53,580 bases of DNA from Acidobacteriota bacterium (GCA_040006435.1 JBDTWZ010000001.1:1-53580); one strand, 5' to 3'. Positions 1-52,175 are shown, counted from the first letter of the stretch. Notes: generated by a model not told the origin, from the sequence alone. A program made the numbers and translations.

Positions 1-113
1 ACGACGCTCTGCTTGTTTCCTGAATCATAGAACATTCGCAGGTCCGGAAGGCGGGCTTGCCCCCGCTCATTCGTTGCGTGAGAATATGCTTCACGCAGAC
101 AAAGAGGAATGCC

Positions 114-1808
114 ATGGTAACCAACTTAATTTCTTATTCCCTCACGCCTGATTTGCAGGACGCCGTGCAAGCTGAGGTCGAATCCTGGAAAGCGGACGAC
201 AAGGTCGCGCGCATTTGGGCGCGGGACGCTTCTGTCTGGACCGGCAACGACGAAGAACAGTGGCTCGGATGGCTGGATATTGTCGATCAAGAGTTAGGTG
301 ATCTTAAGAAATACCGAGACCTTGCCGCGGAAATCGAGCAAGCCGGATTCACAGACATTCTACTGATGGGAATGGGCGGCTCATCGTTGTGCCCCGAAGT
401 CCTCGCGATGACGTTTGGCAAAACAAACTTTCACATTCTCGACTCGACCGTGCCGGCGCGGGTCAAAGCCGTCGAGGACAAACTCGATCTCCCGAAAACT
501 CTTTTCATCGTCGCAAGCAAATCGGGCTCGACACTCGAGCCGAATTGTTTCAAACAATATTTCTTTGAACGCGTTTCTCAGATTTCCGAGACGCCCGGAA
601 AACAATTCGTCGCCATCACCGATCCCGGTTCGAAGATGGAGCAGATCGCGAAGGCCGATGGATTTCGACACATCTTCTACGGAAATCCGGAGATCGGGGG
701 GCGATTTTCGGCCCTGTCGGCGTTTGGCCTTGCGGCGGCTGCCTCGATGGGTTTGGATGTTGAGATCCTCTTGCAACGAGCCTCGGAGATGATTTCCGAA
801 TGCCGCAACCTCGTGCCGCAGGAAAATCCCGGCGCACCGCTTGGACTGATTCTCGGCGTATGCCATCGACATGGAAAGGATAAGCTGACGATCTTTGTTT
901 CGCCGGCGCTTCACGATGTCGGAGCGTGGCTCGAACAATTGATCGCCGAATCCACCGGCAAGAACGGCGTCGCGATAATTCCGGTGGATCGAGAGCCGAT
1001 GATCGACGCGGAGAATTATCACAGTGACCGGGTGTTCGTACACCTCGGTATGAAAGACTCGGCCACCGATGAGCGAATTCACCAAGGGTTGGAAGATATC
1101 GAACGCGCGGGACACCCGATGATCCGCATCGAACTCGAATCGCTCTATCACATCTCACAGGAATTTTTCCGTTGGGAGTTTGCGACAGCCGTCGCCGGTT
1201 CGGTGATGAAGATCAATCCGTTCAATCAGCCGGATGTCGAATCGGCAAAGATCGAGGCGCGGAGGATCACCGATCAGTATGAAGAGACCGGCTCGCTTCC
1301 CGACGAAACTCCGTTTTTCGAAGAGAGTGGAATCGCGTTATTCAGCAATGATGCGAACGTCGCGGCACTGGACGTTATCGCCGGTGATACCCGTTCGCTT
1401 GCCGGATATCTAAAAGCTCACATCTCGCGTATCGAGGCAAACGACTATTTCGCATTGCTCGCTTACGTTGAAATGAATTCGGAGAATGAAACTCTGTTGC
1501 AGGCCCTGCGCGAAACCGTCCTCAATCAGACCCTCGCTGCAACCTGTCTCGGCTTCGGTCCCCGATTCTTGCACTCTACCGGTCAGGCGTACAAGGGTGG
1601 CGGGAACAACGGAGTCTTTTTACAGATAACTGCCGACGACGAAGCCGATCTTCCGGTGCCGAAACAACAATATTCTTTTGGCATTGTGAAGTCGGCGCAG
1701 GCACGCGGCGACTTTCAGGTACTGCTGGATCGAGGACGGCGGGCGCTTCGTGTGCATTTACCGCCTGATGTTCGGAGCGGATTGTCTCGTCTTCTCGAGT
1801 GTCTCTGA
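114..1808 (+). CDS. pgi: glucose-6-phosphate isomerase
   Basis: Long ORF with SIS/PGI motifs MGMGGSSLCPEV and SKSGSTLEP. The ATG at 114 is preceded by AGAGGA and is preferred over the TTG at 57 used by the ORF track. Confidence 0.9.
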   Translation: MVTNLISYSLTPDLQDAVQAEVESWKADDKVARIWARDASVWTGNDEEQWLGWLDIVDQELGDLKKYRDLAAEIEQAGFTDILLMGMGGSSLCPEVLAMTFGKTNFHILDSTVPARVKAVEDKLDLPKTLFIVASKSGSTLEPNCFKQYFFERVSQISETPGKQFVAITDPGSKMEQIAKADGFRHIFYGNPEIGGRFSALSAFGLAAAASMGLDVEILLQRASEMISECRNLVPQENPGAPLGLILGVCHRHGKDKLTIFVSPALHDVGAWLEQLIAESTGKNGVAIIPVDREPMIDAENYHSDRVFVHLGMKDSATDERIHQGLEDIERAGHPMIRIELESLYHISQEFFRWEFATAVAGSVMKINPFNQPDVESAKIEARRITDQYEETGSLPDETPFFEESGIALFSNDANVAALDVIAGDTRSLAGYLKAHISRIEANDYFALLAYVEMNSENETLLQALRETVLNQTLAATCLGFGPRFLHSTGQAYKGGGNNGVFLQITADDEADLPVPKQQYSFGIVKSAQARGDFQVLLDRGRRALRVHLPPDVRSGLSRLLECL

Positions 1809-1897: not shown

Positions 1898-3847
1898 CTA
1901 GACACCAACCGTTTCGTCGTCTTCGATCAAATACGGCGAAACTGACGCCTTATCGATATCTTCTTCGAGAACCTTTGCGATCACAGGCAGAGACAGCGAA
2001 CGCGTTTTCTGGATTCCCGGAACTTCCTTTCCCTTCGCATAGACGGCGTGACGGCCGTTTTCCTGATACCACTCGGAAAGTGATGCCGTCTTGTGCATCT
2101 CTTCGATGATCTGCCGCCAGCCAACGCCGGTGTTGTATGCGCAAAAGCTGATCTCGCCTTCCTGCGTTCCGTACGGAATTACGCACATCTCGGTGCGGCG
2201 GAAGTCGTAGTTAAAAAGATCCTGGAACCACATTCCTTCGACACATAGAACGCGCCAAACGTCATCGTCGGATTTCTCGACCTTCATTCGATCGTTTCGG
2301 TCCGAGTTCGATGTCGTCGACGATGGTTTGAAAAGATTGATGATCTGCGAGATCGGGAATCCATCCGGAGCTTTCGCCGCGTCGTAATTGCGCATGATCG
2401 CCATCCCGAGTTGGGCCATCGTCAGCTTTTTGCCCCGGGCAGTATCGGTGATCGTCGCGACGTCCTTCATGAACTGCTCGTAGTTGAAAAATTCGAACAG
2501 CGATTTCGTCAGGCCGCTCTTTTTGTTGACGACCATCAGCGTGAATATCCCGCAATTCGGATGGCAATTGCACGACGACCAACCCCACGGAGCATCGGCA
2601 CCTTGCAGCATGTCCATGACGGATGTAAACGCGGAATAGCTGGACAGCGGAAACCAATCGCGCATCGGCTCGAGCACACCATCAAGCTGTTCTTTCAGAT
2701 CGTGCGTCATTCCCGCAAGTGTGTATCGCTGTTTGATGCGGTCCTCATCCGAAATGTCCTCATCGCGTCCGGTGAACGATACGGGCTGGAACGCGATCGT
2801 TTGAACCTTGTCGATGTTCTCCGCGGCAAATTTCACGATGCTGCCAATCCCGTTGTTGTTCCAGGAATTTACGATGGTCGTAACGAGCGTCACCTTAACA
2901 CCGACCGACGCGAGATTCTCGATCGCCTTGAGCTTGACGTCGAACAGATTGCCGACGCCACGATGCTCGTTGTCTTTCTCGTTGGTTCCGTCGAACTGAA
3001 GATAAACGCCGTGCTGGCCCGCTTCTTTCGCTGCCTTGCAAAACTCGATGTCCTCGGCATAACGGATGCCGTTAGTCGCGGCGAGAATCCGGTAGAATCC
3101 GACCTTCTTCGCGTAAGCAACGGCGTCGAGAAAGTATGGCGAGAGCGTCGGCTCGCCGCCTGAGAACAAAATGATGATCTGACGTTTTGGCTTGAACGAG
3201 ACGGCTCGATCGAGGATCGCTTTCGTATCTTCGAACGTCGGTTCGTGAACGTATCCAACCTGGTTCGCGTCCATAAAGCACGGATTGCACATCATGTTGC
3301 AGCGGTTGGTCAGATCTACGGTGAGCACCGCTCCGCGGCCGAACTTAATATCGCTCGTCCCGTGATGATGAACGTGTTTGTCCTCAGCCGCTTTGAAATC
3401 ACGTCCATAAAAAAGCGATTCGATACGGTTAAGAAAAGCGGAGTCGGTCGCCAGTACGTCAACGAACTCGCCGTGCGTTGTGCATGTCTTTCGCATCAGC
3501 ACCTGGCCGTTTTCTTCGACGATCTGGGCCTTGATCTCGCCCGGATGCGAATCCATCAAAATGTTCAGCGGAATGTCGCCGGAGATCACGCCGTTGCGGA
3601 CAGACTTTACGCATGAAGGACACAAGCTGTCGGTCTCGCGAGGAAATCCCAGCGGAGGCGCCGTACGTTCGTACGATTTCAAGAGCGGCTCGGCGGCCCA
3701 TGCGGGCTGTATCGACTCGCCTTCAGGAATCGCCTTATTGAGAGCCTGAAACGCCTTCCAGCCAAGATCGGCCATCTTTGAAACGGCCTTCGAACCTGTC
3801 TTGCCGTTCCCCTTTCCTTCACCTCGTCTGAAATTATCGCTAAACAT
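1898..3847 (-). CDS. large radical SAM enzyme with N-terminal Zn-ribbon-like segment and Cys-rich C-terminal half (possible tetraether-lipid-synthase-like protein)
   Basis: CNMMCNPC (CxxxCxxC) cluster motif, FSGGEPT SAM motif, N-terminal CPSC...CTTHGEF segment and C-terminal SSCNCHPNCG / CVIPYG...FCAYN cysteines. Start set at ATG 3847 (alternative 3775). The ORF-track extension to 4207 overlaps the divergent MOSC gene and is rejected. Confidence 0.85.
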   Translation of the reverse strand: MFSDNFRRGEGKGNGKTGSKAVSKMADLGWKAFQALNKAIPEGESIQPAWAAEPLLKSYERTAPPLGFPRETDSLCPSCVKSVRNGVISGDIPLNILMDSHPGEIKAQIVEENGQVLMRKTCTTHGEFVDVLATDSAFLNRIESLFYGRDFKAAEDKHVHHHGTSDIKFGRGAVLTVDLTNRCNMMCNPCFMDANQVGYVHEPTFEDTKAILDRAVSFKPKRQIIILFSGGEPTLSPYFLDAVAYAKKVGFYRILAATNGIRYAEDIEFCKAAKEAGQHGVYLQFDGTNEKDNEHRGVGNLFDVKLKAIENLASVGVKVTLVTTIVNSWNNNGIGSIVKFAAENIDKVQTIAFQPVSFTGRDEDISDEDRIKQRYTLAGMTHDLKEQLDGVLEPMRDWFPLSSYSAFTSVMDMLQGADAPWGWSSCNCHPNCGIFTLMVVNKKSGLTKSLFEFFNYEQFMKDVATITDTARGKKLTMAQLGMAIMRNYDAAKAPDGFPISQIINLFKPSSTTSNSDRNDRMKVEKSDDDVWRVLCVEGMWFQDLFNYDFRRTEMCVIPYGTQEGEISFCAYNTGVGWRQIIEEMHKTASLSEWYQENGRHAVYAKGKEVPGIQKTRSLSLPVIAKVLEEDIDKASVSPYLIEDDETVGV

Positions 3848-3955
3848 AATATTTGTCGGAGTGGGACGCACGAATCCCGGCGAACATCTTAACAAATATC
3901 TACCTGTCCTGCCCAATCTTGTGGCCCGTGGGCAAAATCGATATATTCGCCAATT

Positions 3956-4597
3956 ATGAGAGTTGTAACAGTTTCGGTGGGACAGCCGCAAATTGTTCAG
4001 ACTGGAAGCGAAGGATTTGTCCTCACGTCTATATTCAAGCATCGGGTTGACGGACGCGTGAGAGTGAATGAACTGAATCTTGCAGGCGATGCCCAGGCCG
4101 ACCTCACAGTACATGGCGGATGGAGCAAAGCTGTCTACGTTTACCCCGGTGAGCATTACGAATATTGGCGGAACGGGCTGCCGGAAATGGAACTGGGCGA
4201 TTCTCAATTCGGAGAGAACCTGACAACCGAAGGCTTGCTCGAAACCGAAGTATTTATCGGAGACAAAATTCGTATTGGAACAGCGGAGTTTGTCGTCACC
4301 GAACCCCGCATGCCGTGCTACAAACTCGGCATACGTTTTCGTCGAAAGGATATTCTTCGCCGGTTTCTACAGAGTCGAAAAAGCGGATTCTATCTTGCCG
4401 TAACAAAGACGGGGGAGCTTGCGGCCGGCGACGATATCGAAATTCTATCTCGAGATAAAAACGAGGTAACGGTCACGGATATCGTCAGGGTGTGGGTCCA
4501 GGACAAGGACGATCGAGAGACGATGGCGCGCGCTTTAAATATTGATGCGTTTCCCGAAAGCTGGAAGGAACCGTTCCGCGACCGACTCGCGGGTTAG
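3956..4597 (+). CDS. MOSC domain-containing protein (YiiM-like)
   Basis: 213 aa with typical MOSC beta-barrel motifs (GDAQADLTVHGG, TEPRMPCYKLG). The ATG start is divergent from the radical-SAM gene. Confidence 0.85.
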   Translation: MRVVTVSVGQPQIVQTGSEGFVLTSIFKHRVDGRVRVNELNLAGDAQADLTVHGGWSKAVYVYPGEHYEYWRNGLPEMELGDSQFGENLTTEGLLETEVFIGDKIRIGTAEFVVTEPRMPCYKLGIRFRRKDILRRFLQSRKSGFYLAVTKTGELAAGDDIEILSRDKNEVTVTDIVRVWVQDKDDRETMARALNIDAFPESWKEPFRDRLAG

Positions 4598-6035: not shown

Positions 6036-7346
6036 TTACTCGAAGGCCTCCAAATATTTCACGCCAGAACCGGTGTTGAATAGCACGACAGTTTCACCAT
6101 CTTTAACCTCGGCTCGATCGATCAGTGTTAGTAAGGCGGGCAGGCACGCAGCACCCTCGGGAGCGGCAAAAACACCTTCGGTCGCACCGATCTCGCCGAC
6201 GGCTTTCACTAATTCTTCATCGCTCACAGCAATCGCGGTTCCACCCGATGCTCGGATAGCATCTAGGATCAAAAAATCGCCGATGGCTTTTGGAACTCGA
6301 AGGCCGGACGCGACGGTCGAAGCATTCTCGAATTCGTCAGCAAATCTGTCTCCTTTCTCGAACGCCCGCACTATCGGAGCGCAAGTTGCCGATTGGACCG
6401 TTACCATTCTTGGACGGCGCGAATCGATCCAGCCCATCTGCTCCATCTCGTCGAACGCTTTCCACATTCCGATCAAGCCGGTGCCGCCGCCGGTGGGATA
6501 AATGATCACGTCGGGTAAGTAGCGGGCTCTCTGATCGGGCACCACCCCGTCATCCGCTTCGCGGATGCCACCCCTCCTTAAACCAGGAGGGGAGCTATGT
6601 GCCAAACTCCCCTCCTGGTTTAAGGAGGGGTGGCCGAGGCTTTGCGAGGCCGGGGTGGTGCTGTAAGCGCCAAACTGTTCGAAGAGCTCATACCCCATCG
6701 TCTTCTTGCCTTCGACACGATACGGCTCTTTCAGCGTAGATACGTCAAACCAGCCTTCGGCCTCTTTTCTCTCGGCGACTATCTTTCCGCAATCCGTGAT
6801 CAAGCCGTCGACGAGAGTGACGTGCGCTCCCGTCTGCTCGCATTCGACGATGTTCGCTCGCGGAGTGTCGGATGGCATAAAGATAAATGCTTCCATTCCG
6901 GCTCGTGCGGCATACGCTGCCATCGCTCCCGCGGCGTTCCCCGCCGAAGGGACGGCGACCTTTTTCACGCCTAGCTCCTTTGCCATCGAGATCGCGGCCG
7001 TCATGCCGCGGGCTTTGAAGCTCTGCGTCGGGTTCTGGCCCTCGTCCTTGATGAACAGGTTTAGTTTGATCGGCAGTTTTTCCGCAAGTCGGCCGGCTTT
7101 TAGAAGCGGTGTCCAGCCTTCGCCAAAACTAATAATGTTGTCGGGGTTTTCAACCGGCAACACTTCGCGGTATCGCCACAATGACGATTCCCTCGACGCG
7201 AGTGCATCCGGCGTTATTGTCGCCGCAGCTTTTTCGAGGTCATATCGAACGAGCAGCGGCTTGCCGCATTCGACGCAGAGATTCTGCAGTTTATTCGCTT
7301 CGTGCCGCAGTCCGCAGAGCGCGCATTCGAGGTGTGTGACGTTCAT
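6036..7346 (-). CDS. thrC: threonine synthase carrying a 41-codon in-frame repeat insertion
   Basis: N-terminal Cys4 ribbon (CALCG...CVECG), PLP lysine motif TQSFKARG and glycine loop YPTGGGTGLIG. Start set at ATG 7346 (MNVTHLE), which removes the overlap with the upstream gene. Confidence 0.9.
   Translation of the reverse strand: MNVTHLECALCGLRHEANKLQNLCVECGKPLLVRYDLEKAAATITPDALASRESSLWRYREVLPVENPDNIISFGEGWTPLLKAGRLAEKLPIKLNLFIKDEGQNPTQSFKARGMTAAISMAKELGVKKVAVPSAGNAAGAMAAYAARAGMEAFIFMPSDTPRANIVECEQTGAHVTLVDGLITDCGKIVAERKEAEGWFDVSTLKEPYRVEGKKTMGYELFEQFGAYSTTPASQSLGHPSLNQEGSLAHSSPPGLRRGGIREADDGVVPDQRARYLPDVIIYPTGGGTGLIGMWKAFDEMEQMGWIDSRRPRMVTVQSATCAPIVRAFEKGDRFADEFENASTVASGLRVPKAIGDFLILDAIRASGGTAIAVSDEELVKAVGEIGATEGVFAAPEGAACLPALLTLIDRAEVKDGETVVLFNTGSGVKYLEAFE
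6539..6661. repeat. 123-bp nested palindromic element inside thrC
   Basis: Outer 11-bp inverted repeat GCACCACCCCG/CGGGGTGGTGC (6539-6549, 6651-6661). Inner perfect 27-bp inverted repeat (6568-6594, 6607-6633) with a 12-nt loop. Each inner arm contains its own 8-bp hairpin CCCCTCCT-TAAACC-AGGAGGGG. Confidence 0.9.
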
Positions 7347-8092: not shown

Positions 8093-8791
8093 CTAAGAGC
8101 TCTTTAGCATCGGCTTCAGCTCTTTATAAATATTCACCATCATGATCTTCGTACCCTCGGCGTTCGGGTGGATGCCATCGGCTTGATTCAATTCTCTCTT
8201 GAGCGCGATGTTCTCCAAAAGGAACGGCAGGTATGCGACCTTGTGCGTCGTCGCGAGATCTGGGAAAGCGTTCGAGTATTCCCTCTGGTAATCCGCGCCC
8301 ATCGTCGGCGGCGCGAGCATTCCGCACAAGAGCACAGCGACATTTTTCGCCTTCGCTTTGCGAATGATCCTATCGAGATTCGTTCTCATCTTCGCAACCG
8401 GAACACCCCGAAGCAGATCGTTTGCACCGAGCTCAAGAACAATGATCTGAACATTCTCCTGTTCGAGAATCCAATCGGCGCGCTCGAGACCGCCAAGGCT
8501 CGTGTCGCCTGAGACACCTGCATTCACAACCTCATAATTGTATCCGTCGGCATTCAAGCGTTCCTGCAAAAGATAGGGGTATGACTCGCGTTCGGTGAGG
8601 CCAAACCCCGCGGTCAGGCTGTCGCCGAACGCGACGATCTTTGGCCGATTCGCCGTCACCTCCGGCGTCTTCAAAGGTTTGTTTGATCCAACGCCGATCT
8701 CGGACGGACGCCCACCCGAGGAACACGCGGCCGCCAGTGACCAGAGAAATATGAAACTTAGAAATGCTGTGTTTCGAATAATATGATTCAT
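8093..8791 (-). CDS. tesA: SGNH/GDSL hydrolase, TesA-like arylesterase/thioesterase
   Basis: Blocks FGDSLTAG, GANDLL and DGIHPN, plus a signal peptide. It is divergent from an ABC ATPase and FtsX permease pair, as in the E. coli tesA-ybbA-ybbP arrangement. Confidence 0.8.
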   Translation of the reverse strand: MNHIIRNTAFLSFIFLWSLAAACSSGGRPSEIGVGSNKPLKTPEVTANRPKIVAFGDSLTAGFGLTERESYPYLLQERLNADGYNYEVVNAGVSGDTSLGGLERADWILEQENVQIIVLELGANDLLRGVPVAKMRTNLDRIIRKAKAKNVAVLLCGMLAPPTMGADYQREYSNAFPDLATTHKVAYLPFLLENIALKRELNQADGIHPNAEGTKIMMVNIYKELKPMLKSS

Positions 8792-8843
8792 GTGAAACTA
8801 AATAATATGCTACGCGATTTAGTAAGCTTTGGATGCAGATTCT

Positions 8844-8937
8844 TTGAGGTGTGAGGTATGAAGTATAAGCGGTGAACTAAAAAGAGCCCGGTCAAAGGTT
8901 CTTTCATCATTCACCATGCATACTTCACACTTCACCG
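8844..8937 (+). repeat. heptamer-periodic GTGA/TCAC hairpin element (copy 1), ending 6 nt before the ybbA ATG
   Basis: Left arm GAGGTGT GAGGTAT GAAGTAT AAGCGGT, core CCGGTCAAA, right arm TTCATCA TTCACCA TGCATAC TTCACAC TTCACCG. The arms are partly complementary (GTGTGAGGTATG against CATACTTCACAC). Confidence 0.65.
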
Positions 8938-8943
8938 TTTTTT

Positions 8944-9609
8944 ATGATCCAACTGAACTCAGTCACAAAAACCGTCCGCTCGGGGACGGAAAATCTCACT
9001 ATCTTGTCCGACGTTTCGCTCGACATTCCCGGAGGGCAGTTTGTCGCATTGACCGGGGCGTCCGGCAGCGGCAAATCGACTCTGCTCGGTTTGATCGCCG
9101 GTCTGGATGCACCAAGTTCCGGAACGATCCTGATCGACGGTGACGACATAACAAGTATAAGCGAGGACGGTCTGGCAGAGATCCGAAGCGCAAAGATCGG
9201 GTTCGTATTCCAGTCGTTTCATCTGATCCCCAGTCTTACGGCGCTGGAGAACGTTCTTATTCCAATGGAGATCAGGGGGCTCAGCGACGCCGGTGATCGG
9301 GCGTCCGAGCTTTTGCGAGATGTTGACCTGACCGATCGGGGCCATCATTATCCGGCGGAGCTTTCGGGCGGCGAGCAACAGCGTGTCGCGATAGCTCGTG
9401 CATTTGCGAACCGGCCAAAGATCCTTCTCGCGGACGAACCGACCGGTAATCTCGATTCGAAAAACGGCCGGCACATTTTTGAGTTAATGACCCAGCTTCA
9501 TACGGAGCGGGCCGTGACACTTGTTCTCGTAACGCACGATCACGGGTTGGCGGCTGAGGCACAGCGTCAGATCGTTTTGAAAGACGGACGGGTGATTAGC
9601 GATGAGTGA
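8944..9609 (+). CDS. ybbA: ABC transporter ATP-binding protein (LolD/YbbA-like)
   Basis: Walker [10 protein letters not shown], signature LSGGEQQR, Walker [10 protein letters not shown]. Symbol assigned by synteny with tesA and the FtsX permease. Confidence 0.85.
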
Positions 9610-9690
9610 CGAGGTATGAGCGTCGTCGCGAGAATCGCCGCCGGTCAAACTCTTTTCACTTTTCACTTTTCACTCGTCACTCATCACTCG
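9599..9690 (+). repeat. heptamer-periodic GTGA/TCAC hairpin element (copy 2), spanning the ybbA stop and ending 7 nt before the ybbP ATG
   Basis: Perfect 13-bp inverted repeat GATGAGTGACGAG (9601-9613) / CTCGTCACTCATC (9673-9685). Core CCGGTCAAA. Tandem 7-mers ACTTTTC ACTTTTC ACTCGTC ACTCATC ACTCG (9658-9690). Confidence 0.8.
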
Positions 9691-9697
9691 CTTTATT

Positions 9698-12223
9698 ATG
9701 CGCTTCATCCTCAACCTAACTCGCCGCGAAATCCGCTCATCATGGCGCCGACTGTTATTTTTCTTCCTGTGCATTGCACTCGGTGTCGGTTCCGTCGTCG
9801 CGTTGAGATCGTTGATCCAGAATCTAACCCGCGCCGTCGGAACGGACGCCCGTGCTCTCATGACGGCTGACATCGATATCAGCTCGACAAATAATTTCAC
9901 ACCAACCGAGATTTCGAAGATAGAGACCGCGGTAACAGAATCGGGGATCGTCGATGGCCGAAACGAAACCATCACGACATCGTCGATGGTCCGGCCTTCG
10001 GACCCCGCCAACTCAAACGTAAAACTTGTCGAGCTCAAGGGAATCGAACCGCCGTTCCCGCTGGTTGGCAGTTTTGAGCTCGACGACGGAACGCCCTTTG
10101 ATTTTTCATTGCTTGAAGACAACGGAGTGATCCTCGCGAAAATTCTGCTCGAGGATCTGAATGTAAAAGTGGGTGACCGGATCCGCATTGGAGAAGGTGA
10201 ATTTCAGATACGAGGGATATTCGACCAGGAGCCGGGCGGCACGAGCGGATTTCGCCTGGGAGGCCGCGTCTTTATCGAGAAGAAAGCCTTCGATGACGCG
10301 GGCATCACGAGAAACGCCAGCCGCGTGCGCCGCCGTATCTTGTATCGCTTGACCGACAATCCGACCGAGCTTGTTCGCCAGCTTCGCGAAGCCTTGAAGG
10401 GAACGACCGTAACAGTTGGGTCGTACCGCGAGACCCAGGAAAATCTGAGCGAACAATTTGAGAGGACGGAAAATTACCTTTCGCTGACCGGGCTGCTGAT
10501 CCTCGTCCTTGGCGGCGTCGGGGTATGGAACGTTGCTCGAGCGTTCGTTGAGCAAAAAAGAAAGTCCGTTGCAGTTCTGAAGTGTCTCGGTGCCGGCGGT
10601 GGGCGGATCATTACCGTTTATCTGTTGCAGATCCTCACTCTCGGCTTTGTCGGAAGCATATTCGGAGTTCTTTTTGCACAGCTCGCGTTGCTGTTCGTCC
10701 GATGGCGTTTTGTCGAGGCACTTCCGGAAAAGATGACTTATGCCATCAACCTCTCTACGGTGATTCAAGGCGTCACGCTTGGCGTACTGATCTCGCTGCT
10801 GTTCTCTGCTTTGCCTCTCCTGCAAGTTCGAAACATAAAACCGAAGCTTCTGCTTCGCGATGAAAACAACTCCTCCATCCGACGGCTCGACTTCACGAAA
10901 TGGCTCTTTGGCGCGGTCTCCCTGCTCGGGCTTCTTGGGGTGGCGGTTTGGCAGGCAGGCTCGGTGAAAGTCGGCGCGTTTTTCCTGGGTGGCCTGGCCG
11001 CTACCTCCGCCGTTCTCTATTTGACCGCTTTAGTCCTGACATGGCTGCTTCGCCGATTTCGTCGCGTCGGTCCGTTCGCCTTGTCGCAGGCCGTAAACTC
11101 GCTCTACCGGCCGGGCAACCAAACCCGCACGATCCTGCTCGCTGTCGGGCTCGGAGCATTCGTCGTCCTCGCGGTCCAGTCGCTGCAGGCAAACCTCGTC
11201 AGAGAATTCGACTTCACAAGAAACCGACATCTGCCAAGCTTATTCTTTGTCGATATTCAGAAAAGCCAGATCGAAGCTCTTGCTCAGCTTATCCAGTCAC
11301 ATATCGGCGAGAAGCCCGAAACCATCCCGACCATCCGGGCGCGGATTTCGCACGTAAACGGCGAGCCATTCGACTTTGCTCAGCGCGAAACGCGTCAGCA
11401 GCAAGGCCAGATCGGGCGCGAGTTTGCCGTAACCTATCGCGCCGAGATGGACACGAATGAGAGCGTTCTCAGCGGCAAATGGTGGAATGCGGATCCGGAT
11501 AATGTACCCGAAGTTTCGGTCGAAGAAGAGATGGCTGGCCGGTTAAAGGTCTCGCCGGGCGACTCGATGACGTTCGACATTTCCGGCCGCCGGGTCACAG
11601 CGCGGGTTGCGAACATCAGGAAGTTGGATCTGCGCAATACACGAACGGCGTTTGTCTTTGTCTTTCGTCCCGGCGCTCTGGAAAAAGCACCGCAGACATT
11701 TGCCGCGACAATACTCAAACGCTCGTCAGCGACCGACCGCCAGCGGCTTCAGCGCGATGTACTCGAAGCATATCCGAACGTGCAGATCTTCGACGTGGCA
11801 GATATCGTCGCGACCGTACAAAAGCTCGTCGGCAACTTTGTGCTTGCGATATCTTTTGTTGGCAGCTTTGTGATCTTGAGTGGGATCTTGATCCTCATCG
11901 GGTCGGTCGCACTCACGAAATCCCAGCGGATCTACGAGAACGCAATATTGAAAACACTCGGAGCAAAGCGTCCCACTTTGACGGCGATCCTTTTCGCTGA
12001 ATACGGGCTGCTAGGATTGCTCTCCGGACTGATCGGCGCCGGTTTCGCGACGGTCCTTTCCTACACCGTAAGCCGTTATCTCTTACAGATCGATTGGGAA
12101 TTCGACCCGTTCCTGGCCGTAGGCGGGGTACTCGTGACGCTAGTGATAGTGATGCTGGTCGGCGCTGCGGCGAACTTTGACGTGCTCTTCAGAAAGCCCC
12201 TTTCCACCCTGCGATCGCAGTGA
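9698..12223 (+). CDS. ybbP: ABC transporter permease, FtsX family (YbbP-like, duplicated FtsX domains)
   Basis: 841 aa with two blocks of hydrophobic helices separated by large soluble loops. Lies immediately downstream of the ATPase. Confidence 0.85.
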   Translation: MRFILNLTRREIRSSWRRLLFFFLCIALGVGSVVALRSLIQNLTRAVGTDARALMTADIDISSTNNFTPTEISKIETAVTESGIVDGRNETITTSSMVRPSDPANSNVKLVELKGIEPPFPLVGSFELDDGTPFDFSLLEDNGVILAKILLEDLNVKVGDRIRIGEGEFQIRGIFDQEPGGTSGFRLGGRVFIEKKAFDDAGITRNASRVRRRILYRLTDNPTELVRQLREALKGTTVTVGSYRETQENLSEQFERTENYLSLTGLLILVLGGVGVWNVARAFVEQKRKSVAVLKCLGAGGGRIITVYLLQILTLGFVGSIFGVLFAQLALLFVRWRFVEALPEKMTYAINLSTVIQGVTLGVLISLLFSALPLLQVRNIKPKLLLRDENNSSIRRLDFTKWLFGAVSLLGLLGVAVWQAGSVKVGAFFLGGLAATSAVLYLTALVLTWLLRRFRRVGPFALSQAVNSLYRPGNQTRTILLAVGLGAFVVLAVQSLQANLVREFDFTRNRHLPSLFFVDIQKSQIEALAQLIQSHIGEKPETIPTIRARISHVNGEPFDFAQRETRQQQGQIGREFAVTYRAEMDTNESVLSGKWWNADPDNVPEVSVEEEMAGRLKVSPGDSMTFDISGRRVTARVANIRKLDLRNTRTAFVFVFRPGALEKAPQTFAATILKRSSATDRQRLQRDVLEAYPNVQIFDVADIVATVQKLVGNFVLAISFVGSFVILSGILILIGSVALTKSQRIYENAILKTLGAKRPTLTAILFAEYGLLGLLSGLIGAGFATVLSYTVSRYLLQIDWEFDPFLAVGGVLVTLVIVMLVGAAANFDVLFRKPLSTLRSQ

Positions 12224-21545: not shown

Positions 21546-21556
21546 GTAAGGATTTG

Positions 21557-22168
21557 ATGGAGAAGTTAGTTTCGACAAGTATCGTTGTTAGTTTCGCTAT
21601 TGCGATTGCGGCATCGGTAAGTTGTTCTTTCTTTTCATCTGAAAGCCTCGTTGGCGCTCAATCTAATAACCCTGTTACCGTTCCAACGCCGTCGCCAACC
21701 GAGTCTGAGGTTTCCCCACTTAGTTCGAATGATTTAGCGACGCTTAAGAAGTACGCGGAGGCGTATGAACCAAAATCGGGACGAGAGGTTATTCCGTCAC
21801 CGCCAATCCCCAATGACCGGATTTCCGAGATAATAGCAAAGGCATCAAAGTCGAACTCGCGCGATCACGAGGCGTTCATCATTCTGATTTTCCTCCGGCT
21901 TTCTAGGTTTCAGATCGAACACTTTAGACAACGTTACGAATTGGGGCGTGATAATCCCCTAACGCGCGAGTTCTATCGGCTCATTGGCGAAAACGATTAC
22001 GCGCGGCGGGAGATCATGCTGGCTTACTTAGCCGATAACTACGTAGAGAAGAATCCCGAGCTCCTAAACTACCCGCTGATTGATGCCGAGATGCAAAGAA
22101 TCGATATGGCAGGGAAAAAGATCGAGAACGAGTTGAACAGGATAAGACGAACGTCAACAGTACGGTGA
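21557..22168 (+). CDS. hypothetical exported protein
   Basis: Hydrophobic N-terminus. Visibly more AT-rich than the neighbouring genes and adjacent to the RAYT/REP locus. ATG 21557 is preferred over TTG 21554. Confidence 0.55.
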   Translation: MEKLVSTSIVVSFAIAIAASVSCSFFSSESLVGAQSNNPVTVPTPSPTESEVSPLSSNDLATLKKYAEAYEPKSGREVIPSPPIPNDRISEIIAKASKSNSRDHEAFIILIFLRLSRFQIEHFRQRYELGRDNPLTREFYRLIGENDYARREIMLAYLADNYVEKNPELLNYPLIDAEMQRIDMAGKKIENELNRIRRTSTVR

Positions 22169-22183
22169 TCTTAGCGATTGTCG

Positions 22184-22501
22184 CGGAGCGACCACATGCA
22201 TTTAGCCGTGGCCTTAAGGCCACGGCTTCCGACGACCCGTTCCTGCCGCATCAGCGGTAGTTGGTTCAATTGCCGCTAACGCGGCAAGAATTACTTGCAT
22301 CCTCCAACCGTGGCCTGAAGGCCACGGCTAAAGGCGTCTGCCCGCTACGCGGTCAGCTCGCCGGATCGAGGGTCGAGGCGACGCGGTCGGGTCGAGGCAA
22401 GGTGGGCGAGGCAAGGTCGTCGCGTAGCGACCGCATGCATTTAGCCGTGGCCTTAAGGCCACGGTTTTCCGACGACCCCGTTCCTGCCGCGTCAGCGGTA
22501 G
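22184..22501. repeat. cluster of three REP units (alternating orientation, BIME-like)
   Basis: Units of about 80 nt. Each has a GTAG-containing head (CGCGTAGCGACC), hairpin core GCCGTGGCC-loop-GGCCACGGC (cores at 22205-22226, 22308-27, 22444-64) and a second small hairpin CTGCCGC-NTCA-GCGGTAG. The middle unit is inverted. Confidence 0.9.
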
Positions 22502-22507
22502 GTGAAA

Positions 22508-22960
22508 TCAATCGAAAACATATTGCAGGTCGTACTCGATGCCATGCAGCCTGAGCAGCGAGATATATTCCTCTTCGAAGGTCTCGCCATTGTGATGCTC
22601 CCGCTGGTTCTCGATGTATCGAATTACGTCCGGAACTTGTGATTTACTTACGGAGAATATCCCGTAGCCGTCCTGCCAGCCGAAATAGCTCAGGTTCGAG
22701 AATTCGTCGTGAATCCACTTGGAAGAGCCACCTTTTAGCCACATTGGGATCTTGCACGGCGGAACGACCGGCTTCGCCATAACAAGTCCGTGAACGTGAT
22801 TCTCGATGCCTCCAACTCTTAAAGAGGTTACGTCGTGTTTCCGTGCGATTCCGCCGATATAGTTCCAAACACGTTCTTCGATCTCTTGGTAAATAAAGTT
22901 ACGCCGCTCTTTCGTACTAAAGACGATGTGGTAGAAGAGTTGGGAATACGTGTTTGCCAT
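22508..22960 (-). CDS. REP-associated tyrosine transposase (RAYT; IS200/IS605 TnpA Y1 family)
   Basis: 150 aa with HUH motif HVHGLV, catalytic-Tyr region WQDGYG, and N-terminal YHIVFSTKERR typical of Y1 transposases. REPs flank it on both sides in inverted orientation. Confidence 0.9.
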   Translation of the reverse strand: MANTYSQLFYHIVFSTKERRNFIYQEIEERVWNYIGGIARKHDVTSLRVGGIENHVHGLVMAKPVVPPCKIPMWLKGGSSKWIHDEFSNLSYFGWQDGYGIFSVSKSQVPDVIRYIENQREHHNGETFEEEYISLLRLHGIEYDLQYVFD

Positions 22961-31426: not shown

Positions 31427-31528
31427 GTGTCTATTATAGACGATGCACGATCGAACTCTTTTTATTCCCTGAGACTTCTCTTATAATAGCCCGTCGAACG
31501 TATCGATCATCCCTGTTATGACTTGTTT

Positions 31529-33499
31529 ATGAAGATCAACGACTTTGTAGTCCGCTTTGCGAATGTGAACGGTACCGGTTCGGCATCGGCCAACGCACTG
31601 TTTACAAAGGCAGTGTTTCGCATGGGCGTGCCGGTGACGCCGAAGAATATCTTTCCGTCGAATATCCAGGGGCTGCCGACGTGGTACGAGGTGCGTATTT
31701 CGGAAGGCGGACATCTCGGCCGCCGCGAGGGCGTCGATCTGATGATCGCGGTCAATCCGCAGTCGATGAAAAAGGATTACGCCGATGTTCGCGAGGGCGG
31801 CTATTTTCTTTACGACTCCTCGAAGCCCCTCGCACCCGGTTACGATCGGACCGACATCACCCATATCGGCATCCCGCTGATGACTCTCTGCAATGCAGAG
31901 TTTACCGACGCACGCCAGCGCCAGCTTTTCAAGAACATCGTCTATATCGGAGCCCTTGTCGCTCTGTTCGGGATCGAGTTTGAAATGCTCGAGCAGCTCG
32001 TCGGCGAACAGTTCCGCGGTAAGGAAAAATTGATCGAGCCTAACATCCGGGCGCTCAACATCGGGGTGAAATACACGCGGGAGAATTTCGAATGTCCGTT
32101 AGACATACGCGTCGAACGCCGCGACCTGCTCGGCGATAAAGTTCTTTACAGCGGCAATTCGGCGTGCGCACTCGGTGCGATCTATGCCGGAGCAACCGTC
32201 GCCGCGTGGTATCCGATCACACCTTCAACATCGGTCGTCGATGCGTTTGCCAAGTATGCCGCTAAGTACCGCGTCGACGCCGAGACGGGTATGAACAACT
32301 ACGCGATCGTGCAGGCCGAGGACGAACTCGCGGCGATCGGAATGGTAATGGGCGCGTGCTGGAACGGCGCACGTGCGTTCACCGCGACGAGCGGCCCGGG
32401 CATCTCTCTGATGAACGAGTTCCTCGGCCTCGGCTATTTTGCCGAGGTGCCGACGGTGCTAATAGACGTACAACGAACCGGCCCATCCACCGGCATGCCG
32501 ACGCGGACACAGCAATCCGACATTTTGCTCGCGGCGTATGCGTCGCACGGCGATACAAAACATCCGCTGTTGTTCCCAGCCTCGCCGAAGGAATGTTTCG
32601 AGATGACGGCCGACGCCTTCGATCTGACCGAGCGTCTTCAGACGCCGGTCATCGTCATGACGGATCTCGATCTCGGGATGAACGATCACATCACCGAGCC
32701 TCTTGTTTGGGATGACGCCCGTAAATTTGACCGCGGCAAGGTCCTTACAGCCAGACATCTTGAACGCCTCGGCGGTGCGGCACTGGCTGATATCGTCGAG
32801 GGGATGGAGAACGAAACCGACGGCGACGCGTTCGCGGGCAGCGCCATTGAACAGTTTCGCGGTAAATTTGGCCGCTATCTTGACATCGACGACGACGGTA
32901 TTCCGTACCGCACAGTTCCCGGCGTTCATCCGACGCGCGGGGCATATGTCACACGCGGCTCATCGCGTGACGAGTACGCAGTCTACACCGAGGACGGCGA
33001 CGTCTATCGTCGCAACATGGACCGCCTCGCCCGCAAGTGGGACACGGCGAAGGAGCTGGTGCCGCAGCCGGAATTTTATGGCGACGCGGGGACGGGGCGA
33101 CACGGAGAAGGGGAGAAAGGGAGAAAGGGAGAGGGGCCGACCTCTGACTCGTCACTCGTCACTCGTCCCTCATCACTAAAAAATGACGCCGTCATTTTTT
33201 TCGGAACCTCCACATACGCAGCGATCGAGGCATTGGAGCTATTAGCCGATGAGGGAATCCGACTCGACGCGATGCGAGCCCGTGGATTCCCTTTTGGAAA
33301 GTCGTTTCGTGATTTCATCGACTCACACGACCGCGTCTTCGTCATCGAACAAAACCGCGATGCGCAGTTTCGCAGCCTGATGATGATCGAATTAGGAGTC
33401 GACGCATCAAAGCTTGTTTCGGTCCTAAACTACGACGGGATGCCGATCACGGCGGACAACATCTTCATACAGATTAATTCATTTTCTCAGGACCAATGA
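31529..33499 (+). CDS. korA: 2-oxoacid:ferredoxin oxidoreductase, fused gamma-alpha subunit, with an in-frame repeat insertion
   Basis: N-terminal gamma-like VNGTGSASANALF...PSNIQGLPTWYEVR, and alpha domain with TGPSTGMPTRTQQSD. ATG 31529 preferred over TTG 31523. No beta-subunit gene follows. Confidence 0.85.
   Translation: MKINDFVVRFANVNGTGSASANALFTKAVFRMGVPVTPKNIFPSNIQGLPTWYEVRISEGGHLGRREGVDLMIAVNPQSMKKDYADVREGGYFLYDSSKPLAPGYDRTDITHIGIPLMTLCNAEFTDARQRQLFKNIVYIGALVALFGIEFEMLEQLVGEQFRGKEKLIEPNIRALNIGVKYTRENFECPLDIRVERRDLLGDKVLYSGNSACALGAIYAGATVAAWYPITPSTSVVDAFAKYAAKYRVDAETGMNNYAIVQAEDELAAIGMVMGACWNGARAFTATSGPGISLMNEFLGLGYFAEVPTVLIDVQRTGPSTGMPTRTQQSDILLAAYASHGDTKHPLLFPASPKECFEMTADAFDLTERLQTPVIVMTDLDLGMNDHITEPLVWDDARKFDRGKVLTARHLERLGGAALADIVEGMENETDGDAFAGSAIEQFRGKFGRYLDIDDDGIPYRTVPGVHPTRGAYVTRGSSRDEYAVYTEDGDVYRRNMDRLARKWDTAKELVPQPEFYGDAGTGRHGEGEKGRKGEGPTSDSSLVTRPSSLKNDAVIFFGTSTYAAIEALELLADEGIRLDAMRARGFPFGKSFRDFIDSHDRVFVIEQNRDAQFRSLMMIELGVDASKLVSVLNYDGMPITADNIFIQINSFSQDQ
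33104..33200 (+). repeat. composite periodic repeat inside korA (purine octamers, ACTCGTC heptamers, 11-bp palindrome)
   Basis: GGAGAAGG GGAGAAAG GGAGAAAG GGAGAGGG (33104-33135). ACTCGTC x3 plus CCTCATC ACT (33147-33177), shared with 9672-9688. AAAAAATGACG-C-CGTCATTTTTT (33178-33200). Confidence 0.8.
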
Positions 33500-52003: not shown

Positions 52004-52175
52004 CGCGTAGCGGCCGCTCGCATTTAGCCGTGGCCTTCAGGCCACGGATGAAGGTCAACAAATCTTGCCGCGTCAGCGGCAATTGAGAATTCGTGCGGTC
52101 GCTACGCGACGCAATTGATTTTTCCGACTACCCGTGGCCTAAGGGCCACGGCTAAACTCGATTGACCGCGACGGG
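52004..52175. repeat. REP doublet of the same family as at 22.2-23.0 kb
   Basis: CCGCGTAGCGGCCGCTCGCATTTAGCCGTGGCCTTCAGGCCACGG...CTTGCCGCGTCAGCGGCAA, then an inverted, partly rearranged unit with core CCGTGGCCTAAGGGCCACGGCTAAA (52132-52155). Confidence 0.85.

Follow-up and report, generated by a model that had tools for sequence, protein, structure and literature searches.

A heptamer-repeat hairpin in the ybbA-ybbP spacer of an acidobacterial genome: apparent growth in place and a possible role in translational coupling

Introduction

The 53,580-nucleotide (nt) stretch of DNA considered here, hereafter the window, comes from a soil bacterium of the Acidobacteriota (GCA_040006435.1, JBDTWZ010000001.1:1-53580) whose genome is represented by these 53.6 kb only, and our subject is the 88-nt spacer that separates two of its co-directional genes, ybbA and ybbP, a spacer composed of heptamer repeats and predicted to fold into a hairpin. 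The upstream gene encodes an ABC transporter ATPase, for which LolD is the best and NF007879 YbbA the second-best profile match and whose conserved core ends ...GRVISDE, with the stop directly after Glu221. The downstream gene encodes a duplicated permease, matched by the NF041854 YbbP profile over profile positions 8-793 of 806. Together with the divergent tesA-like gene these form the arrangement of E. coli tesA-ybbA-ybbP, and open reading frames (ORFs) and profile matches bear out the identities assigned to ybbA, ybbP and their TesA-like neighbour by an initial annotation of this DNA (Table 1). A second hairpin, in the divergent spacer between tesA and ybbA, will be called copy 1, and that of the ybbA-ybbP spacer copy 2.

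The genome belongs to the family Pyrinomonadaceae (Acidobacteriota, class Blastocatellia); in a collection of species-representative genomes, the 80 loci nearest in YbbP all come from metagenome-assembled genomes of that family or its order, and a root metagenome yields a contig of 7.8 kb identical to window DNA. The ybbA-ybbP junction was compared in 66 related genomes, and 763 kb of relatives' DNA were scanned for repeats; individual loci are cited, where necessary, by L numbers.

Table 1. Genes and repeat features of the tesA-ybbA-ybbP locus, and the third heptamer tract of the window
Feature	Position	Strand	Basis
tesA-like GDSL/SGNH esterase, coding sequence, divergent from ybbA	8093..8791	-	ORF and profile matches
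Copy 1, degenerate period-7 hairpin between the divergent genes tesA and ybbA	8845..8940	+	Inverted-repeat search, Tandem Repeats Finder (TRF), RNA fold
ybbA-like ABC transporter ATPase, coding sequence, 221 amino acids (aa)	8944..9609	+	ORF; PF00005; C-terminal comparison
Copy 2, purine-rich 5' arm, AGC GAT GAG TGA CGAGGTATGAG	9598..9620	+	Inverted-repeat search
Copy 2, loop, with small inner hairpin GCGAGAATCGC and the 9-mer CCGGTCAAA common to copy 1	9621..9651	+	
Copy 2, pyrimidine-rich 3' arm of tandem heptamers	9652..9690	+	TRF, lag-7 scan, inverted repeat
U-rich unpaired linker CTTTATT, without Shine-Dalgarno sequence, from hairpin to ybbP ATG (9698)	9691..9697	+	
ybbP-like duplicated FtsX/MacB-type permease, coding sequence, 841 aa	9698..12223	+	ORF; PF12704, PF02687
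Third heptamer tract, GGAGAAAG x3.6 then ACTCGTC x4.4	33102..33177	+	TRF, pattern search

Anatomy of the ybbA-ybbP spacer

The two ends of the spacer are joined by a perfect 13-bp inverted repeat, GATGAGTGACGAG at 9601-9613 and its exact complement CTCGTCACTCATC at 9673-9685, which lengthens to 16 nt with one mismatch (94%; 9598-9613 / 9673-9688). The 5' arm is made up of the last three codons of ybbA, its stop codon TGA (9607-9609) and degenerate heptamers (GATGAGT / GACGAGG / TATGAG), the heptamer GATGAGT being itself the GAT-GAG-T(GA) of the ybbA end. The 3' arm contains about 4.7 tandem heptamers, namely ACTTTTC at 9658-9664 and again at 9665-9671, ACTCGTC at 9672-9678, ACTCATC at 9679-9685 and a partial ACTCG at 9686-9690, the two ACTTTTC units being preceded by a degenerate ACTCTTTTC; TRF reports a period of 7 with 3.3 and 3.0 copies, merged over 9652-9690. 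In the loop the 9-mer CCGGTCAAA occupies 9641-9649. The inverted repeat, the heptamers, the position of the TGA within the left arm and the 7-nt gap before the ybbP ATG had all been described in the initial annotation and are exact to the base; its description of the 88 nt as essentially all element agrees with our mapping of repeat and hairpin over almost the whole spacer, as does the proposed stem-loop with the fold predicted for an RNA made of the spacer and the final 25 nt of ybbA (-43.4 kcal/mol, z = -3.9). It is likewise true that no Shine-Dalgarno (SD) sequence precedes ybbP, yet this is usual in the present genome, where an SD-like 4-mer stands at only 8 of 39 gene starts against a background of 15%.

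The repeat structure of copy 2 exceeds chance. A lag-7 scan finds just two period-7 tracts in the whole window, and in the related DNA 35 such tracts against one in shuffled sequence. The 13-mer GAYGAGTGAYGAG occurs five times (0.55 expected), and the fold z of -3.9 points the same way.

The junction in related genomes

In E. coli K-12 ybbA and ybbP overlap by 4 nt and in basal Pyrinomonadaceae relatives the spacer runs from -4 to +17 nt, in keeping with the supposition that these two genes are normally tightly coupled. Because of these short distances the 88-nt spacer of the window is a derived state, the ancestral junction being a 4-nt stop/start overlap. Across the 66 relatives the spacer ranges from -4 nt (an ATGA overlap) to 1875 nt. 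On the YbbP tree overlapping or very short spacers lie in basal lineages, and hairpin spacers are restricted to two clades, where they measure 40-200 nt and consist of tandem units of 7-10 nt; every one of the nine genomes in the window's own clade has one.

What these hairpins are made of changes rapidly. The unit GACGAGT / GATGAGT is found in the window, L023, L004 and L005, GGTGAAT in L029 and L038, ACACAGAT in L027 and L035, AACTGAT in L028 and 9-mers in L039; the 8-mer is GTGAGAAA in L003 as against CGGAGACA in L002, with YbbP 96% identical in both. The spacers of L002, L003, L070, L004, L005 and L023 differ from that of the window in both length and sequence. Even contigs whose flanking genes are about 90% identical have other DNA in both hairpin regions, 33 nt replacing 103 nt at copy 1 in one and 151 nt replacing 107 nt at copy 2 in two others. 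The alternative offered at the outset, that an insertion had split the operon, is not supported by such spacers, since orthologous hairpins in genomes with 83-96% identical YbbP use different units. The initial annotation would also have given way before related spacers that lacked repeat character, or before a tract that was invariant and confined to this site; the relatives' spacers are repeat-like, and the tract is neither invariant nor unique. Of 44 heptamer tracts located in the relatives, 13 lie between ybbA and ybbP, another 13 between tesA and ybbA, and the remaining 18 at other loci.

Some relatives hold whole genes at this junction. In L077 (3448-4000) and L034 (3468-4000) a Phd/YefM antitoxin and YoeB-like toxin pair lies between ybbA and ybbP, and the final stop of the module overlaps the ybbP ATG (ATGA), re-creating tight coupling; L025 retains in its spacer just the last ~30 nt of the toxin gene, and in L061 the insert measures 1875 nt and includes an ORF of 412 aa. 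In L019 (3532-4000) and L062 (217-686) a gene for a PF05635 '23S rRNA intervening sequence protein' (121-122 aa, E = 1e-35) occupies the loop of a hairpin with tandem 9-mer arms (GAGAGAGTC / GACTCTC...), the 5' arm of which is translated in L062 as the YbbA tail ...ESRESRESRES. A tblastn search of the window and 80 loci with this protein returned only those two genes, the sole pair in 763 kb; because the two genomes are related, the insertion was probably one event, most simply placed in their common ancestor, and the link between PF05635 and the hairpin is a lead rather than a pattern.

Conservation of the fold

One feature, the fold, survives this turnover. For 45 orthologous spacers between 35 and 210 nt long the median fold z is -3.4, with 25 of them at z < -3, as against a median of -0.8 for other co-directional spacers (n = 73; Mann-Whitney p = 3e-4). 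An alignment of five spacers contains a 32-bp helix in which 23 of the 32 pairs are altered on both sides, and 88.8% of its cells are paired compared with 66% in shuffles and 24-42% for slid partners. Prediction and covariation together suggest that a stem-loop may form in the ybbA-ybbP mRNA. The helix usually extends into the coding end: of 25 ybbA-ybbP hairpins, 19 include the stop codon in a long-range pairing, as do 4 of 17 control hairpins from other junctions (Fisher p = 0.0014), and in most orthologous hairpins the 3' end of the helix falls 6-11 nt before the ATG (7 nt in the window).

Many of the relatives' stems reach 25-50 bp, long enough for an element of mRNA processing or stability, in which the duplex would act as an RNase III-type site or as a barrier to 3'-exonucleases and so part the ybbA segment of the transcript from the ybbP segment and confer different half-lives on them, in the manner of the REP sequences between malE and malF and of the intercistronic hairpins of phage T7. 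Hairpins processed by RNase III have some 20 bp or more of duplex RNA and are cleaved in vivo, and the enzyme also excises rRNA intervening sequences, whose architecture recurs in the PF05635 gene within the hairpin loop of L019 and L062. Moreover, a YbbA2:YbbP1 stoichiometry, which the duplicated FtsX permease would imply, would need unequal output of the two genes. The helix of the window itself, however, is short and interrupted, with a perfect core of 13-16 bp that is marginal for such a stem, and the association with PF05635 amounts to a single event in two related genomes. We consider this explanation improbable.

Arm order and the wider class of heptamer repeats

The pattern ACTCRTCACTCRTCACTC matches at least 120 metagenome contigs whose GC content spans 0.35 to 0.69 and which have only the repeat unit in common. 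When 119 ACTCRTC tracts lying away from contig ends were scored for a (GAYGAGT)n partner within 160 nt, the partner was upstream in 33 and downstream in none, corresponding to at least 17 independent hairpins against zero; an ATG-led ORF of at least 100 aa began within 30 nt downstream of 21 of the 119 tracts, compared with 6 on the other side (p = 0.0035). The same order prevails in the ybbA-ybbP hairpins, where the purine-rich half is 5' in 22 of 25 (p = 1.6e-4) and 41 ATG triplets fall in 5' halves against 6 in 3' halves. A (GATGAGT)n purine arm has TGA and ATG in every frame and the pyrimidine arm has neither; the order purine to pyrimidine would therefore close upstream reading frames and leave no false starts in the downstream leader. 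At the ybbA-ybbP junction the bias follows partly from seeding on the coding end.

In kind, then, the element is a heptameric simple sequence repeat. It has at least three head-to-tail 7-nt units beyond chance; its tracts are dispersed over several, mostly intergenic loci (three in the window, at 8845-8940, 9598-9690 and 33102-33177, beside the 44 of the relatives); it is hypervariable in length and sequence at one site among close relatives; and it lies just upstream of start codons, at 7 nt here and at 6-11 nt in most orthologous hairpins, a side that is favoured in the metagenome contigs too (21/119 versus 6/119). This class and the anatomy given above we hold with considerable confidence.

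Placement of this sort might also be expected of a binding array, in which a protein recognising the heptamers, as DNA or RNA, would regulate ybbA and ybbP at the level of transcription or of translation. An array of this type, and a translational role, have been proposed for the TAACTGA repeats of Beggiatoaceae (PMC4679880), and there too the tracts directly precede start codons in a genome poor in SD sequences. Deletion constructs in Nostoc suggest that heptamers beside start codons modulate expression of recF and recO (10.1101/2022.06.06.494920), and the tracts enumerated here are enriched upstream of ATG. The unit differs, however, between sites within one genome and between close relatives, so that a specific binder would have to change with it, and among the explanations weighed in this paper the binding array seems to us the least credible.

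Local growth or insertion

The initial annotation regarded copy 2 as the second of two direct copies of a discrete element bracketing ybbA. In the relatives the conserved core of YbbA ends ...GRV(I/V)SDE and is followed by a repeat-encoded tail of 0-20 aa, and the first 12 nt of the copy 2 left arm are the conserved Ser-Asp-Glu codons and the TGA; the ybbA stop was therefore not simply imported. Neither copy is visibly flanked by a target duplication, and apart from the arms themselves no terminal inverted repeats can be seen. The hallmarks of a miniature inverted-repeat transposable element (MITE), that is, terminal inverted repeats, a target-site duplication and near-identical full-length copies, are thus absent, as is the conserved 20-40-nt palindromic unit in many copies that would mark a repetitive extragenic palindrome (REP) or REPIN, nothing beyond the heptamer being conserved. 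The genome does possess a REP-like palindrome, GCCGTGGCCTTAAGGCCACGG, at five sites in the window against none expected (22205-22225, 22307-22327, 22444-22464, 52027-52047 and 52131-52151), three of which form a 300-nt cluster of alternating orientation between the convergent genes 21554-22168 (+) and 22508-22960 (-); this family differs in sequence from the copy 2 hairpin. Because the arm is the coding end, no target duplication or distinct ends are seen and the REP family is a different one, we read the element not as a transposed unit but as a quasi-palindrome of tandem heptamers with fast turnover that appears to have grown in place.

How far copy 1 is the same element can be judged by direct comparison. 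Its arms (8851-8876 / 8910-8935) are 26 nt long and 77% complementary, its loop contains CCGGTCAAA at 8888-8896, it stops a few nt short of the ybbA ATG (8944), and its RNA fold has z = -4.45; orthologues with altered arms are present in L070, L002 and L003. The architecture and orientation claimed to be common to the two copies do hold, whereas the sequence matches weakly, the right halves, from CCGGTCAAA to the ATG, agreeing at about 71% over 62 nt, with a score equalled by 1 of 1000 shuffles; the common 9-mer CCGGTCAAA occurs three times (0.57 expected), a count equalled by 3 of 100 shuffles. Against copy 2, copy 1 scores 27, no better than a coding stretch of the window unrelated to either (29) and below the tract at 33 kb (37); duplication of copy 1 to give copy 2 was rejected on this ground. 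The closest relatives retain the CCGGTCAAA region of copy 1 as CCGGTCGAA or CCGGGTCAG, while CCGGTCAAA was not found in the ybbA-ybbP spacer of any relative compared and was for that reason rejected as a functional core of copy 2. More generally, the tesA-ybbA spacer consists of a conserved promoter-proximal block followed by a variable repeat hairpin that ends a few nt before the ybbA ATG. Its tesA-side half is conserved across relatives (...TATGCTACGCGATTTAGTAAG.TTTGGATGCAGA..., e.g. window 8792-8845) and probably holds a promoter or operator.

A miniature mobile element of the MITE or REP sort, with one insertion on each side of ybbA and both in the same orientation, would account for two hairpins of equal layout and orientation with a common 9-mer, for the multi-copy state of the heptamer tract in the source metagenome, where depth over 9624-9711 is about ten times that of the flanks, and for heptamers in at least 120 metagenome contigs. 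It accords poorly with two copies that are barely alike and show neither target-site duplication nor ends apart from the arms, with a left arm that is conserved coding sequence, with orthologous sites that hold different units, with metagenome matches that span so wide a range of GC content and have the repeat unit alone in common, and with a genuine REP-like family of other sequence in the same genome. Little sequence in common, the missing duplication and the origin of the left arm in ybbA codons all speak against two inserted copies of a discrete element, and we regard this explanation as very improbable; growth in place is the reading retained.

The best non-self match to copy 2 within the window is the third tract, which lies in frame inside a 658-aa ORF (31523-33499) for a POR/KorA-like 2-oxoacid:ferredoxin oxidoreductase. 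Its translation, ...GDAGTGRHGEGEKGRKGEGPTSDSSLVTRPSSLKND..., separates the POR_N domain from the VIFFGTS domain at the C-terminus, and relative to the solved KorA 6n2n about 67 additional residues stand between the two parts that align; as RNA the tract has no significant fold (z = -1.1). In L007 (739-772) and L008 (1605-1643) a tract of (GGATTTT)n / (GGGTTTT)n apparently lies inside a conserved minus-strand coding region and appears to be a further in-frame occurrence.

Other classes of element fit no better. At the arm ends (9598-9697 read) there is no AAC...GTT core pair of an integron attC site (RYYYAAC ... GTTRRRY), and ybbA is a syntenic core gene in the 66 relatives and E. coli rather than a cassette. 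A promoter and terminator scan of 8700-9800 gave no intrinsic terminator at either hairpin, the loops being 33 and 59 nt as against 3-8 nt for such a terminator; U-rich stretches follow both hairpins (TTTTTT and CTTTATT), and weak attenuation may occur there. The only promoter-like site in that scan, a weak one, is at 8759-8787, upstream of copy 1. In Rfam 15 the only gathering-level match in the window is a tRNA-Pro, and a permissive search of 8750-9750 gave no E below 0.5, all scores being far below gathering thresholds. Two further inverted repeats were noted elsewhere in the window. One, at 6567-6634, is a perfect 28-bp repeat (GCCACCCCTCCTTAAACCAGGAGGGGAG, a 12-nt loop and the complement); the independent Logan contig L001 starts at 6635, and that assembly therefore broke exactly at this palindrome. 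The other, of 18 bp (94% complementary; 1830-1884), lies between the ends of the convergent genes 57-1808 (+) and 1898-4207 (-) and looks like a bidirectional terminator.

A proposed mechanism and its principal rival

We envisage that in the window's clade the ancestral ATGA overlap of ybbA and ybbP was opened, that replication slippage grew a tract seeded on the purine-rich last codons of ybbA (AGC GAT GAG TGA), and that inverted copying between the arms, by template switching, maintained their complementarity as the unit sequence drifted. If the two genes are co-transcribed, the mRNA would form a stem-loop with the ybbA stop in its 5' arm and with 7 nt between its 3' arm and the ybbP AUG, so that ybbP would have no more than a short, single-stranded, U-rich leader in an SD-poor genome. 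A ribosome at the ybbA stop could then melt the stem and free the 3' arm, which would otherwise cover the -8 to -45 region required by the 30S subunit; the closed stem could also loop out the extra 88 nt, such that stop and start would remain spatially close. By either route translation of ybbP would depend on that of ybbA, and the strength of the stem, set by heptamer number, might tune the ATPase:permease ratio, for which 2:1 is plausible given a duplicated FtsX permease. The second option of the initial annotation, an intra-operon stem-loop acting on that ratio, would accord with what is observed.

The main rival, ahead of an RNase III or stability element, is that the hairpin is a neutral by-product without any role, slippage and hairpin-templated copying having inflated heptamer palindromes in tolerant non-coding DNA; its position would then mark no more than the one place between the two genes where DNA is free. 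In many bacteria no long simple repeats are more over-represented than heptamers, which are favoured by mutation, and slippage has been proposed as the cause (Mrazek 2007, as summarised in PMC4679880 and PMC4692102). Turnover is extreme even among nearly identical genomes, many relatives lack any spacer, the junction takes unrelated inserts, and the palindromes are strand-symmetric. A by-product would nevertheless not be expected to keep its fold in every member of the window's clade despite replacement of the sequence, to extend into the coding end at a rate so far above that of other hairpins (19/25 versus 4/17), to show a one-sided arm order (22/25 here and 33 to 0 in the metagenome contigs), or to be enriched just upstream of start codons. 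We think this rival rather unlikely, if the most serious of those considered.

Several observations weigh against a coupling role all the same. Sense and antisense folds have similar energies (means -43.5 and -41.7 kcal/mol; Wilcoxon p = 0.32), and a sense-strand RNA signature in the form of G-U pairs, sought in the hairpins, was not found, such pairs making up 8.9% of the total; this strand symmetry means that there is no RNA-specific signature and fits a mechanism at the level of DNA, where homogenisation of the arms could produce the covariation without selection. The stem of the window itself is interrupted and several pairing registers are possible. The junction tolerates whole inserted genes (the toxin-antitoxin pair, the PF05635 gene and the 1.9-kb insert). 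Comparable hairpins occur at other junctions, and the tesA-ybbA region has z < -3 in 19 of 67 loci, with a best period of 7 in 13 of those 19; because hairpins also precede ybbA, a position without a coupling partner, and stand at other junctions, coupling cannot be the general reason for the class.

Taking these points together, the whole account, a heptamer quasi-palindrome grown locally and serving as a coupling spacer, seems to us evenly poised between right and wrong, and the coupling function by itself, the tying of ybbP translation to that of ybbA, is put forward as the likeliest of the roles considered but as a tentative proposal.

Relation to known repeats and significance

The element belongs with the heptameric repeats of cyanobacteria (short tandemly repeated repetitive sequences, STRR), Xanthomonas and Beggiatoaceae and extends them to the Acidobacteriota; literature searches for heptamer repeats in Acidobacteria and for the exact repeat strings returned nothing relevant. 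Its notable traits are the inverted arrangement, a 5' arm derived from the end of the upstream gene, and the conservation of shape at one orthologous site. The intergenic regions of the Anabaena nif cluster have reportedly been described as 'highly variable but structured'. As in the STRR of heterocystous cyanobacteria (Calothrix, Nostoc/Anabaena; cited in PMC4692102, with Nostoc examples in PMC2408588), tandem 7-nt intergenic units occur at many loci in several unit families per genome, xxxxAGT units there corresponding to GAYGAGT here and Nostoc ttgtcagttgtcag (PMC2408588, Table 3) to the GTCAGTT and CTGACAA tracts of L036 and L044. Unlike the STRR, the present repeats are found in Acidobacteriota, have other units, and are paired as a hairpin whose 5' arm is the upstream coding end.

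The TAACTGA repeats of marine Beggiatoaceae, some Cyanobacteria and Bacteroidetes (MacGregor 2015, PMC4679880) also consist of 2-6 units in one orientation, within a few nt of start codons, in intergenic regions without canonical ribosome-binding sites, which are rare there, and with some copies inside ORFs; the ybbA-ybbP spacer of L028 even has TCAGTTA, the reverse complement of TAACTGA. There, however, one unit dominates (169 direct, 1 indirect), whereas here units are many and arms inverted. The GGGAATC and GGGGA(C/T)T repeats of Xanthomonas and Nostoc (Rehm 2015, PMC4692102) provide a further parallel, in that the arrays occupy the same intergenic sites with variable length and sequence among close relatives, some of them inverted and capable of forming stem-loops. 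Those units are G-rich and form quadruplexes, unlike the units described here, which have no G-tract.

Among elements of other kinds, the hairpins of REP and bacterial interspersed mosaic elements (malE-malF in E. coli) and the RNase III hairpins of the phage T7 early genes lie between co-transcribed genes, and copy 2 resembles both as a stable intergenic stem-loop that might set relative expression. REP units have conserved sequences, reach hundreds of copies and are linked to RAYT transposases, and the copy 2 hairpin differs from them in having no conserved unit. Rickettsia palindromic elements are conserved palindromes of 100-150 bp inserted in frame in protein-coding genes; the third tract is comparable in adding a low-complexity linker in frame to the POR/KorA-like gene and shows that heptamer tracts can enter coding sequence in this way, but it is a short tandem repeat and lacks a significant fold.

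Ordinary in kind, the element has its value as a clean comparative test of an old class of repeats. Start-codon heptamers have been described for decades in cyanobacteria, Xanthomonas and Beggiatoaceae without an established function, and the ybbA-ybbP junction constitutes a natural experiment, since dozens of lineages show different sequence in the same geometry at a single orthologous junction whose ancestral state, an overlap, is known, which makes selection on shape directly testable against a mutational by-product. We think it doubtful, though worth stating, that repeat hairpins are at large a selected, sequence-free device for translational coupling in SD-poor bacteria, with slippage as an evolvable dial on subunit ratios; if true, the logic of such a device would explain the start-codon heptamer tracts of cyanobacteria, Bacteroidetes and Beggiatoaceae.

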